Shown here: piece by piece, positions 9,959 through 12,813 of the stretch | How the letters are laid out: each line of letters starts with the position of its first letter | Numbering within the stretch: position 1 is the first letter of the stretch | Position numbers and translations under genes: made by a program | Notes under the pieces: generated by a model | Databases searched by the model: none | The model's input: only the letters and a program-made list of their open reading frames with translations | What the model was told of the DNA's origin: nothing | Origin: Deltaproteobacteria bacterium | Lineage (GTDB): Bacteria; Myxococcota; UBA727; VGSZ01 | Direction: 5' to 3' | NCBI GenBank assembly: GCA_020850995.1 | Contig: JADZDP010000155.1 | Coordinates: 1-60,683, forward strand | DNA length: 60,683 nt

Positions 9959-11077
9959 ATGCCCGTGCCGTCGAAGAGCGGAACGCTCGACCAGAAGCTC
10001 GAGACCCTCGGCGTCCAGGTCAAGGACCAGCCGACCAAGCACCCCAAGCGCCCCATGCACGTCGCCGTCGTGGGGGCCACCGGCGTGGTGGGGCGCGAGA
10101 CCCTCGCCATCCTCAAGGAGCGCGCCTTCCCACTCGCCACCATCAAGGCGCTCGCCTCCGAGCGCAGCCAGGGTGAGCGCGTCGCCTTCGGTGACGACGA
10201 GCTGGTGGTGGAGGCGGTGCGGCCGGAGTCGTTCGCTGGCGTCGACCTGGTGTTCTTCGCCGCCGGCGGCGGCGTCTCCAAGGTGTGGGCGCCCCGCGTG
10301 GCCGAGGCCGGCGGCGTTTCGATCGACAAATCGAGCTCGTTCCGCATGGACCCCGACGTGCCGCTGGTGGTGCCCGAGGTGAACGGGCACGCGCTCGCCG
10401 GCTTTGCCAAGAAGCGCATCATCGCCACGCCCAACTGCTCGACCATCCAAATGGTGCAGGCGCTGGCGCCGCTCCATCGCAAGGCAGGCGTGCAGCGCGT
10501 GGTGGTGTGCACCTATCAAGCGGTGAGCGGCGCCGGCCGCGGCGGCGTCGACGAGCTCGAGCGGCAGGTGCGCGACCTGTTCAACCTGCGCGAGCCCAAG
10601 ATCGACACCTTCGATCAGCGCATCGCCTTCAACGTGCTGCCGCGCATCCCGGCCAAGGACCCCATCCCGGCCGACGGCACCACCGGTGAAGAGCGCAAGA
10701 TGATCGACGAGACGCGCAAGATCCTCGAGGCGCCAGCGCTGCGCGTGGGCGTCACCTGTGTGCGCGTGCCAGTGTTCAACAGCCACTCCGAGGCCGTGCA
10801 CGTCGAGCTGGCGGCGCCGCTCTCGCCCGAGGATGCGCGCGCGCTGTTCGCCGCCGAGCCGAACCTGCTGGTGATCGACGATCCGGCGCGCGGCCTCTAT
10901 CCCACGGCCGAGGACGCCAGCGGCGAGGACAAGACCCTGGTGGGGCGCGTGCGCGTCGACGCCAGCGTACCCGACGGCAGGGGCCTGGCGTTTTGGGTGG
11001 TGAGCGACAACCTGCGCACCGGCGCCGCTCTCAACGCGGTGCGCATCGCGGAGGCGCTGTGCGCGGACTGGCTCTGA
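9959..11077 (+). CDS. asd: aspartate-semialdehyde dehydrogenase
   Basis: MPVPSKSGTL...HVAVVGATGVVGRE...IIATPNCSTIQMV...YQAVSGAGRGG matches the Asd NAD-binding and catalytic-Cys motifs. Only this 3' part of the 855-aa track ORF is real. Confidence 0.9.
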   Translation: MPVPSKSGTLDQKLETLGVQVKDQPTKHPKRPMHVAVVGATGVVGRETLAILKERAFPLATIKALASERSQGERVAFGDDELVVEAVRPESFAGVDLVFFAAGGGVSKVWAPRVAEAGGVSIDKSSSFRMDPDVPLVVPEVNGHALAGFAKKRIIATPNCSTIQMVQALAPLHRKAGVQRVVVCTYQAVSGAGRGGVDELERQVRDLFNLREPKIDTFDQRIAFNVLPRIPAKDPIPADGTTGEERKMIDETRKILEAPALRVGVTCVRVPVFNSHSEAVHVELAAPLSPEDARALFAAEPNLLVIDDPARGLYPTAEDASGEDKTLVGRVRVDASVPDGRGLAFWVVSDNLRTGAALNAVRIAEALCADWL

Positions 11078-12813
11078 CCCTCGTTTCGGTCTGTTATGCC
11101 GGCGCGGCCGCCGGGCAGACCGTCTCCGAGCTGACCGTCGACGGCAAGACCTCGCTCACCGAGGGATACAACCGCGCCGACTGCGCCAGCACCGACACCA
11201 TGCTCTTGCGCCTGCGCGTCAGCGTGCCCGAGACGCGCTACTACGCGCGCTTCGTGCTCGCGCCCGCCGGTGTGACGGGCGGGCCGTGTCCTACCGACCT
11301 GCAAGAGCAAGAGCTCGAGGAGGTCATCGCCGCTGAGGCGCTCGACGCGATCTCCGGTGTCCTCGAGCTCGATCGCTCGGTGCTGCCCGCTGACTTGATG
11401 GGTGCGTCCGCCTGCGGCACCGACGGTACGCGCTTCACCGGCGGCTCGTTGTGCCTGCAGCTCACGCGCAACGAGAGCGACGTCACGGCGGTGCTGGCCC
11501 AAGGGCTCACCATCGACTTCGACACCACGGTCCCGCCGGCCATCACCATCGACGAGGTCGCGCTCGGCGATGCCAGCGCCACGCTGACCATCGGTGGCAT
11601 CCCCGACGACGACGACGAGAACTACACGGTGCAGGTGCAGTACCGCGCCTGCCCCACCGACGGGGCCGCCGACGCGGGCACCGCCGACGCCGACAGCGCG
11701 TGTGGCGCCAACGGGTCGTATACGTCGGCAGAGGTGGACGAGAGCAGCACGGTCACGCTCGAGGGGCTCGAGAACGGCGTCAAGCTCGAGGTGCGCGTGG
11801 CGCTGCAGGACGACTTCGGCAACGACGGACCGTGGAGCGCCCTTGCTCTCCTCGAGCCCGTCCCGTCGCTTGGCACCCTTGAGCTCTACGACGGGCACGG
11901 GGGCGACCTTTCGTGTTCGCCTTCGTGCGGCACCGGGGCCACCGGCACCTCGGCCGCCAACCTGGGCATGTTTGGCGCCCTTGCGCTCGCGCTCACCCGC
12001 CGCAGTCGGCGCCGGGCGCTGCGGGTGCTACGCCGAGTGACAACGTCGTTGGGAGTCGTCGTGCTCCTCGCCGTCGCCGTGGGCGCCGAGCCCGCCGCCG
12101 CCGACCTCGGGCAGCAGACCCTGGCGCTCGCCATCTCGCCCTACAAGCCCGCCATCGATACCGAGCTCGTCCAAGGCTACCGGCGCATCTTTCCCGTCTA
12201 CGGCTGCCTGTTTGGCGGCGCCACGCTCATCGAGGTGGGCGCTGACGCCGATACGCACCTCTACGACGGCTTTGGCAGCGTGCAGCTCTCCGCCGGGCTC
12301 AACCTCGCGCAGGCGCGCGGCAAGGCCCAGCCCACCGACGCGCTCACGAGCGGCGAGTGCCAGGCCGCCACCGACACGGACGTCGAGCTGAGCCTCCTCA
12401 AGCTGCGGCCGGGCATCACCTACCGCGCCGATCAGCTCCTCGATCTCTTCCAGGTGCCCTTGGTGCCCTACGGACGCTTGGGCTTGGTGGCGACGGCGTT
12501 CGCCTTCACCAAGGAGGGTGCCTTCGAGCAGGGCACGGTGGAGCCCGTGGGCCTGCGCTTTGGCTGGGAGGCGGCGGCCGGCCTGATGGTGGCGCTCGAC
12601 TTCCTCGACGCCATCGATCCCTTCGTACCCGACACGACGCGCCGCGCGCGGGCCAATGGCACCTTTGATCACACCTTCCTGTTCGCCGAGGGTGCGTGGC
12701 AGCAGATCGACACCTTCGGCCGGCCGGGCTTGGTGCTATCGCCCGATGACGAGTTCCTCGGCACGCGCCAACCGGTGCTGTGGAAGCTCGGTGTCGCCGT
12801 CGAGCTCTTGTGA
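11059..12813 (+). CDS. secreted protein with internal MYXO-CTERM-like sorting segment fused in frame to an outer-membrane beta-barrel-like domain
   Basis: GTG start gives signal peptide VRGLALTLVSVCYAGAAAGQ. Residues ~300-340 (SCSPSCGTGATGTSAANLGMFGALALALTRRSRRR) have the Cys-Gly-rich/TM/Arg-cluster pattern of MYXO-CTERM. Next comes a second signal-peptide-like stretch (VTTSLGVVVLLAVAVGAEPAAA) and a ~250-aa beta-rich domain. No stop separates the two parts. Confidence 0.5.
   Translation: MRGLALTLVSVCYAGAAAGQTVSELTVDGKTSLTEGYNRADCASTDTMLLRLRVSVPETRYYARFVLAPAGVTGGPCPTDLQEQELEEVIAAEALDAISGVLELDRSVLPADLMGASACGTDGTRFTGGSLCLQLTRNESDVTAVLAQGLTIDFDTTVPPAITIDEVALGDASATLTIGGIPDDDDENYTVQVQYRACPTDGAADAGTADADSACGANGSYTSAEVDESSTVTLEGLENGVKLEVRVALQDDFGNDGPWSALALLEPVPSLGTLELYDGHGGDLSCSPSCGTGATGTSAANLGMFGALALALTRRSRRRALRVLRRVTTSLGVVVLLAVAVGAEPAAADLGQQTLALAISPYKPAIDTELVQGYRRIFPVYGCLFGGATLIEVGADADTHLYDGFGSVQLSAGLNLAQARGKAQPTDALTSGECQAATDTDVELSLLKLRPGITYRADQLLDLFQVPLVPYGRLGLVATAFAFTKEGAFEQGTVEPVGLRFGWEAAAGLMVALDFLDAIDPFVPDTTRRARANGTFDHTFLFAEGAWQQIDTFGRPGLVLSPDDEFLGTRQPVLWKLGVAVELL

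Follow-up and report, generated by a model that had tools for sequence, protein, structure and literature searches.

A single reading frame in a genome of the phylum Myxococcota was found to join two envelope proteins that some of its relatives encode as separate genes. The window analyzed here is the whole 60,683-nucleotide (nt) contig JADZDP010000155.1 (positions 1 to 60,683, forward strand) of GenBank assembly GCA_020850995.1, classified as Deltaproteobacteria bacterium (GTDB lineage Bacteria; Myxococcota; UBA727; VGSZ01), and the gene of interest is an open reading frame (ORF) of 584 codons at 11059-12813 on the forward strand. This gene is probably a natural and conserved in-frame fusion of an SgmI-like protein, which bears a MYXO-CTERM sorting tag, with an outer-membrane beta-barrel of the MXAN_2562 family, and its product would be cut in two during export. 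The architecture of the protein, its homology to the split gene pair, and its conservation are established, and from these features we infer the membrane topology and the cleavages described below.

The two families occur in the same order in Myxococcus xanthus, where they are two genes, whereas here they share one reading frame, within which the SgmI-like tag and the barrel signal peptide have both become internal. The M. xanthus protein MXAN_2561, or SgmI, is implicated in type IV pilus-dependent motility and combines two FN3-like domains with a MYXO-CTERM tag; the downstream gene, MXAN_2562, is apparently cotranscribed and is predicted to encode an outer-membrane barrel, and transposon mutants of the two genes show similar developmental fitness profiles (10.64898/2026.08.28.747804). 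The two-gene state of M. xanthus is taken from the literature rather than from the DNA of its junction. No paper describing an SgmI-like/barrel fusion was found, and the literature found on MXAN_2561/2562 or sgmI treats them as two genes.

The fused frame runs from a GTG at 11059 to the stop codon at 12811-12813 with no internal stop. In this frame, the guanine-plus-cytosine (GC) content of codon position 3 is 0.84-0.98 upstream of, over, and downstream of the junction, so that composition gives no hint of a hidden frameshift. Together with the family match of the C-terminal part (see below), the single ORF and the continuous GC signal bear out the first-pass annotation, which had noted that translation continues without a stop into a second signal-peptide-like segment and a domain resembling an outer-membrane protein. 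The product is deposited at NCBI as MCC7073262.1, a 584-amino-acid “hypothetical protein.”

The N-terminal half opens with a putative signal peptide, MRGLALTLVSVCYAGAAAG (residues 1-19, 11059..11115; read from the sequence, with an approximate end), whose basic residue, hydrophobic run, and small-residue c-region look Sec-like by eye and which is conserved among homologues. Residues 1-316 match NF045522 (MXAN_2561 family MYXO-CTERM-anchored protein) over model positions 1-303 of 304 with an E value of 2e-21, the alignment beginning at residue 1 of the fused protein. The SgmI-like ectodomain (residues ~21-265, 11119..11853) appears in the full-length AlphaFold model as two beta-sandwich domains with a predicted local distance difference test score (pLDDT) of about 85-92, and a PDB fold search with this model returned only FN3/Ig matches, the best of which were tandem FN3/Ig domains. 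A Pfam scan of the fused protein added nothing significant. As a side observation, five giant proteins of 2,700-7,300 amino acids (P0152, P0159, P0163, P0177, and P0190) each contain 15-40 matches to profile positions ~161-279; judged by these profile matches, the second beta-sandwich domain type is also a repeat unit of very large adhesin-like proteins.

The C-terminal half (residues 349-584, 12103..12810) is an eight-stranded outer-membrane beta-barrel of the MXAN_2562 family. Residues 355-568 match NF040596 with 107.4 bits when the full protein is scanned and 109.9 bits when the C-terminal part is taken separately, against a cutoff of 100. A barrel-only AlphaFold model built from 101 sequences shows eight long strands with a pLDDT of 91.3 and a predicted template modeling score (pTM) of 0.86, and its best PDB matches are Ail, the OmpA transmembrane domain, NspA, OmpX, OprF-N, and PagL (E values of 6e-8 to 1.5e-4). 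The full-length model (mean pLDDT of 71.9, pTM of 0.42) also has eight C-terminal strands, with no confident placement of the hairpin between the halves or of the domains relative to each other. Pfam and NCBIfam detect no OmpA domain, and the protein ends with the barrel. An N-terminal series of beta-rich domains followed by a C-terminal barrel does resemble the passenger and translocator of a type V autotransporter, in which the passenger would be exported through its own barrel with no processing of a tag. However, the barrel has 8 strands and an Ail/OmpA/OmpX/NspA-like fold, as opposed to the 12-stranded barrels of autotransporters, a hydrophobic hairpin of two helices with an arginine-rich loop separates the two parts, and in many relatives the parts are separate genes. 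We give this explanation hardly any credence, and it was rejected as contradicted by the barrel fold and the split orthologues.

The junction between the halves comprises three successive elements. The first is an internal MYXO-CTERM-like tag, SCSPSCGTGATGTSAANLGMFGALALALTRRSRRR (residues 285-319, 11911..12015), recognized by its match to TIGR03901 and by its conservation, with the canonical series of a Cys motif (SCSPSCG, residues 285-291), a Ser/Thr/Gly spacer, a transmembrane helix (NLGMFGALALALT), and an arginine cluster (RRSRRR). A complete tripartite signal in mid-protein had been noted before, at residues ~300-340; the signal is indeed there, about 15 residues farther upstream. When isolated, it aligns to model positions 5-34 of 34 of TIGR03901 with 17.6 bits and an E value of 0.0039. 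Rather than ending the protein, it is followed by 265 residues. The second element is a basic loop, RRSRRRALRVLRR (residues 314-326, 11998..12036), which is predicted to be cytoplasmic and is conserved across fused relatives; by its sequence, it supplies both the arginine cluster that ends the tag and the n-region of the next signal peptide. The third is the internal signal peptide of the barrel, with h- and c-regions VTTSLGVVVLLAVAVGAEPAAA (residues 327-348, 12037..12102), which aligns with the signal peptide of a stand-alone barrel encoded at the split locus L010. It has an uncharged run of 16 residues and a peak Kyte-Doolittle hydropathy of 2.60, compared with 16 residues and 2.54 in stand-alone barrel signal peptides. 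A signal peptidase I site is predicted between A348 and D349 (12102 and 12103), after A346-A-A348, and the first strand of the barrel starts about four residues past this Ala-x-Ala. Across 16 homologues with identities down to 24%, residues C290, R315, R317, R318, and A348 never vary and A346 shows at least 90% conservation, a pattern beyond what chance would give.

The fused architecture recurs far beyond the window. A word-based search retrieved 11 full-length relatives of 582-618 amino acids (40-100% identity) along with more distant fused proteins, and relatives at identities of 82% to about 25% retain the fused frame. When the full-length profile was searched with HMMER, 4169 proteins were found at an E value of ≤1e-3 and 352 at ≤1e-30; among the best 150 representatives of 50% identity clusters, most have 500-720 amino acids and match the whole profile in a single stretch. 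Location of the barrel by hidden Markov model in the collected proteins yielded 139 with at least 200 preceding residues, that is, fused, and 123 with at most 70, that is, stand-alone, a biased sample that gives no estimate of frequency. The word search with the barrel profile omitted the fused proteins P0001-P0011 and is likewise unusable for a fused-to-split ratio.

Nearly all of these fused proteins retain the junction. Helix 1, the basic loop, and helix 2 are present in 137 of the 139, and in 133 of these 137, helix 1 is closely preceded by a Cys. Loop length varies between 3 and 35 residues around a median of 9, the median charged content being 6 basic and 0 acidic residues, and in many members the loop is just RRR or RRRR, for example, in a protein that reads LLALLGL, RRRR, AGALLVLALLVGSTAANA, and then Q. 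With such a loop, one arginine cluster both ends the sorting tag and forms the n-region of the signal peptide. Excised tag segments of fused relatives match TIGR03901 at an E value of ≤1 in 68 of 115 cases, the best at 8.6e-8. Four fused proteins (P0204, P0206, P0232, and P0241) have lysine-rich loops and sequences rich in Ile, Asn, and Lys, a composition that suggests low-GC hosts; the fused family and its MYXO-CTERM-like tag may thus extend beyond the high-GC Myxococcota.

This recurrence bears on the possibility, also raised in the first-pass annotation, that a sequencing or assembly error merged two genes that are truly separate. A single miscalled base would suffice for that, given that the genes of split relatives overlap by just 4 nt; in addition, the window belongs to a metagenome-assembled genome (MAG), and a related MAG locus, L003, has an apparent frameshift, though elsewhere in the gene. 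Nevertheless, a near-identical 584-amino-acid ORF (representative P0001, differing by at least one residue) recurs on at least 10 contigs derived from independent samples and assemblers, including SRR30303755, ERR16043870, GCA_041918315.1, and SRR36607691, with the same neighbors in each. A pattern scan of genome contigs recovered nine loci, all in MAGs, with patterns too specific to reach Myxococcus, and the junction is in frame at 8 of 9 related genome loci. The apparent exception is L003 itself (protein P0012, 353 amino acids), where the frameshift lies in an N-terminal GEGEGE/GRGRGR low-complexity repeat and the junction itself is in frame; this frameshift is probably an assembly error in the repeat. 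It maps to about 6500-6800 of a Microflora Danica MAG, for which the gene caller gave only the 353-residue protein. With the frame maintained in about 139 diverse fused proteins, the loop and second hydrophobic segment conserved as protein, and the codon signal continuous in one frame, an artifact is extremely improbable, and this explanation was rejected on the grounds of recurrence in independent samples, the conserved frame, and the continuous codon signal.

The two halves are encoded separately in other relatives, some of them in the same genomic setting. At locus L010, from a JGI metagenome, the gene order is that of the window, namely, a tetratricopeptide repeat (TPR) protein, asd, the SgmI-like gene, the barrel gene, a gene for a protein of ~300 amino acids, a PMT_2-like gene, and a serine/threonine kinase gene, with the SgmI-like protein and the barrel encoded by separate genes that overlap in ATGA. 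The first of these genes ends in RRGRRSLRALRDIMRS, also given as LSCSPSCTDTSTSSSTAAGFGGLLLSLSRRGRRSLRALRDIMRS, directly followed by the stop codon; the product of the second begins with MMKNALVAPALALVAGIVLAAPAHA and then DFGQQT, that is, a signal peptide followed by the barrel. Because it aligns with this second gene, the second hydrophobic segment of the window's protein can be identified as the counterpart of the signal peptide of a stand-alone barrel. At L009, which also has asd upstream, the first gene ends in RRRTR and a stop, and the barrel starts with MM in the neighboring frame, as expected for an ATGA overlap. At L015 and L016, the MYXO-CTERM ends AARRRGARR and ARRRRR, each followed by the stop, run directly onto an ATGA overlap in the DNA. 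These two loci (2700-4800) have another neighborhood, with a gene for a TgpA-like transglutaminase upstream and truA downstream, and their upstream partner is longer, at 402-429 amino acids. One further split locus has coordinates of 4004/4001, which indicate a 4-nt overlap from the coordinates only. Thus, a 4-nt overlap was seen at all five split loci examined, and because of it, a single small indel in or after the arginine cluster can fuse or split the pair. As to whether orthologues form one gene or two, the answer is mixed, in that close orthologues are single proteins and the split relatives are those at L009, L010, L015, and L016. Orthologues are therefore not uniformly contiguous proteins with an internal segment that TIGR03901 fails to recognize, the finding that the first-pass annotation had named as evidence against its reading: split relatives exist, and more than half of the excised tags match the model, with the tag of the window itself below threshold.

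The fused and split states seem to have interchanged repeatedly. A rough neighbor-joining tree was built from 123 fused and 89 stand-alone barrel domains (212 in all). To account for the states on it by parsimony, at least 21 changes are needed, compared with about 68 when the states are shuffled, indicating that the state is inherited and yet switches often. Given that the tree is crude and only part of the stand-alone calls were verified on DNA, the number of switches is an indication rather than a measurement. Within the syntenic group of the window, the fused locus L003 and the split locus L010 are about equally distant from it, and the more distant L004-L008 are fused. A possible relic of the ancestral overlap is GTGA at 12037..12040 (forward strand), where GTG lies in the main frame and TGA in the +1 frame, closing a +1 ORF at 11594..12040. 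This motif falls exactly where the basic loop gives way to the second hydrophobic segment; it lacks conservation in L001 and L002, may be a coincidence, and is given little weight.

A route from the fused chain to two exported products can be proposed as follows. The ancestral state would be two genes with stop and start codons overlapping by 4 nt (ATGA), and a small indel near the arginine cluster would have created a single frame that kept both the full tag of protein 1 and the full signal peptide of protein 2. During export, the N-terminal signal peptide would direct the FN3-like domains across the inner membrane, the helix of the tag would act as a stop-transfer segment, the arginine-rich loop would remain cytoplasmic, and the second hydrophobic segment would restart translocation, so that the barrel part is exported too. 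Given the positive-inside charge distribution of the loop, the central segment is predicted to form a helical hairpin in the inner membrane, with helix 1 running out-to-in and helix 2 in-to-out. Signal peptidase I would then cut after A346-A-A348, so that the barrel precursor could insert into the outer membrane; this cut would be required because the barrel begins right after helix 2 and the chain, if left whole, would be unable to get to the outer membrane, and it is in line with the Ala residues at -1 (invariant) and -3 (nearly so). The conserved Cys would be lipidated, and the myxosortase MrtX would cut beside it, freeing the N-terminal protein for display on the surface through the type II secretion pathway known for MYXO-CTERM proteins. 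That the tag is still in use is suggested by the near-universal Cys. About 58 residues would be left over as a hairpin peptide, and the outcome would be the same two products as those of the split form, made in a strict 1:1 ratio at one site. Cleavage of a polyprotein by the MYXO-CTERM protease, the other option offered at first pass, accordingly stands as the best reading of the gene in an amended form: myxosortase alone would free no functional barrel, and from the retained signal peptide and its invariant Ala-x-Ala it follows that signal peptidase I would have to make a second cut.

The main rival explanation holds that the barrel is mostly made separately, by internal initiation, for example, at the GTG at 12025, which would yield a protein beginning with MLRRVTTSLGVVVLL, and that the full-length product is minor or merely tolerated. 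The in-frame GTG codons at 12025 and 12037 lie just ahead of the hydrophobic segment, a start at 12025 would produce a normal signal peptide with an RR n-region, and the ancestral pair used translational coupling at the same spot. Conversely, no Shine-Dalgarno-like motif precedes these GTG codons in the window or in L001, and in L002 and L003, such motifs fall after the basic region, whereas in both split loci inspected, L009 and L010, AGGAG or GAGG precedes the start of the barrel gene; among the few fused loci for which DNA was available, a Shine-Dalgarno motif with a start codon before the barrel was not consistently found. In many fused relatives, moreover, only RRR or RRRR separates the two helices, and the full-length frame is kept in >130 diverse proteins, which internal initiation alone would not require. 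We consider internal initiation unlikely, although it is the foremost competitor of a cleaved fusion protein.

A slightly less probable rival is that signal peptidase I alone acts on the chain, the tag no longer being a substrate of myxosortase, so that the FN3-like part would be a periplasm-facing inner-membrane protein held by the hairpin or helix 1. The internal position of the tag and its score under the TIGR03901 cutoff fit such a loss, and the action of MrtX on an internal MYXO-CTERM tag has been proposed in the literature rather than demonstrated. The retention of the Cys motif in all but four of the fused proteins with a junction hairpin, and its invariance in the 16 close homologues, would nevertheless be hard to explain if lipidation and cleavage had been lost. 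The TIGR03901 matches of other internal tags and the processing of internal sorting tags in sortase and archaeosortase systems likewise speak for a functional tag.

Several observations weigh against a fusion protein that is cut in two by both enzymes. The tag scores below the curated TIGR03901 cutoff of 20 bits both when isolated and within the N-terminal half, where it reaches 14.7 bits. The NF045522 match, at 76.7-79 bits, is below the equivalog cutoff of 150; the N-terminal half is homologous to that family by sequence and is best called SgmI-like rather than a certified MXAN_2561 equivalog. Residues 271-350 are of low confidence in the AlphaFold model, which places helices at 299-311 and 314-339. 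The Ala-x-Ala site was read by eye and from conservation, and the small-x-small motif found in 130 of the 137 fused proteins is a loose one that Ala-rich sequence readily satisfies; stronger evidence comes from the column conservation of A346 and A348. Finally, translation of the barrel could start separately at the in-frame GTGs at 12025 and 12037. For the tag, too, conservation across homologues is a stronger argument that it is genuine than the score of the model.

Proteins of this general kind have been noted before. In the accessible text of Guo, Haft & Wall (mBio 2025, PMC11980579), the MYXO-CTERM model comprises lipidation of the Cys, Cys-dependent cleavage by MrtX distal to it, and surface display dependent on type II secretion, and MXAN_5598 is described as an adhesin with an internal MYXO-CTERM, an outer-membrane barrel, and an OmpA domain, for which N-terminal processing is proposed. 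There, MXAN_5598 is likened to TraA plus TraB, whose ORFs overlap, and an internal LPXTG and an archaeosortase substrate are cited as precedents for the processing of internal tags (PMC11980579). That protein shares with the fused protein an adhesin-like N-terminal part, an internal MYXO-CTERM, and an outer-membrane barrel in one ORF; it belongs to a different protein family and has the OmpA cell-wall-binding domain that is absent here. In the accessible text, MXAN_5598 is presented as atypical and rare, with no account there of how the barrel crosses the inner membrane, whereas here a signal peptide is identified and the architecture is found in about 139 diverse proteins. The SgmI-like/barrel proteins are thus a second, unrelated, and much larger family of a kind already noted for MXAN_5598. 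What is added is that the fused form is common and diverse in this family rather than rare and that, judged by sequence, the retained signal peptide and shared arginine cluster account for the possible export of the barrel.

Other systems show parts of the proposed scheme. The Haloferax volcanii ArtA substrate with a central tripartite tag, attributed to Abdul Halim et al. in 2017, is reportedly processed although its tag is internal, and Navarre and Schneewind in 1994 are said to have observed processing of an internal LPXTG sorting signal away from the C terminus. Both cases involve sorting enzymes and signals different from those of MYXO-CTERM, and we know of no second signal peptide or second exported product after the tag in either. 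The FbcH cytochrome b/c1 precursor of Bradyrhizobium japonicum, ascribed to Thony-Meyer et al. in 1991, reportedly gives rise to two envelope proteins through an internal signal-peptide-like cleavage; the proteins are unrelated to those studied here and lack a sorting tag, and neither product leaves the inner membrane. Viral glycoprotein polyproteins offer another remote likeness, in topology, an example being Gn/Gc of bunyaviruses, for which the accessible text of a published account describes export, a stop-transfer helix, a basic loop, an internal signal peptide, and a cut by signal peptidase (PMC7926653). The topological logic is the same, but the machinery is that of the eukaryotic endoplasmic reticulum, the proteins are viral, and there is no homology.

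There is about an even chance that these proteins represent a widespread class of envelope polyproteins that flips repeatedly between fused and split forms, with a disposable hairpin, built around a shared arginine cluster, that would be cut by myxosortase and signal peptidase I; so far, this has not been described as a class. If the proposed processing is correct, the family would be a natural experiment showing that an internal tag is no obstacle to MrtX and that signal peptidase I cleaves internal signal peptides as a matter of routine, and selection for 1:1 co-export of a surface adhesin and its barrel partner would be suggested. MYXO-CTERM sorting is only partly understood, and MrtX has been shown to act on only a few substrates. 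The fused family therefore offers a ready test of whether myxosortase needs a free C terminus, of the fate of the leftover membrane peptide, and of whether the surface protein and the barrel are obligate partners, as TraA and TraB are. The findings do not amount to a new principle; they provide a large and clean natural system in which to examine how MYXO-CTERM sorting and signal peptidase handle internal signals. The frequent switching also illustrates how overlapping stop and start codons ease fusion and fission. For annotation, searches for tags only at the C terminus or for signal peptides only at the N terminus miss both internal features, and the present assignment corrects the label “hypothetical protein.”

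The fused gene is embedded in a run of tightly coupled genes (11059-17874) with overlapping stops and starts, and the NCBIfam scan of the neighborhood covered the eight ORFs around it (6847-20101). Upstream lies asd, encoding aspartate-semialdehyde dehydrogenase (9956..11077, forward strand; NF011456, 441.9 bits), the last 19 nt of which overlap the start of the fused gene, with the asd stop at 11077; the order of asd followed by the SgmI-like gene is conserved in L001-L010. Farther upstream is a gene for a TPR protein (8412-9956) with a C-terminal AgmX/PglI-type tail that scores 36.6 bits against NF033768, just under the cutoff of 40. The AgmX/PglI-type domain is linked to gliding-motility proteins in Myxococcus. 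Downstream, a conserved gene for a 295-amino-acid protein (12810..13697, forward strand) starts with a GTG at 12810 that overlaps the stop of the fused gene in GTGA; it is syntenic in L001-L003, L008, and L010 and was also found among the gene calls of L011-L014. It is followed, with a 4-nt overlap, by a 570-amino-acid PMT_2-type membrane glycosyltransferase-like gene (13694..15406, forward strand; PF13231, 29.2 bits against a cutoff of 26.1; syntenic in L001-L003 and L010) and then, with another 4-nt overlap, by a gene for a TPR and serine/threonine kinase protein that starts at 15403. The order of TPR, asd, SgmI-like/barrel, 295-residue protein, PMT_2, and kinase genes is conserved in L001-L003 and L010 and, in part, in L008. 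The 295-residue protein has no match to a Pfam or NCBIfam family. It has a hydrophobic N-terminal segment and is always encoded between the barrel and the PMT_2-type glycosyltransferase, and, speculatively, it might have the Ser/Thr-rich spacer of the surface protein as its target.

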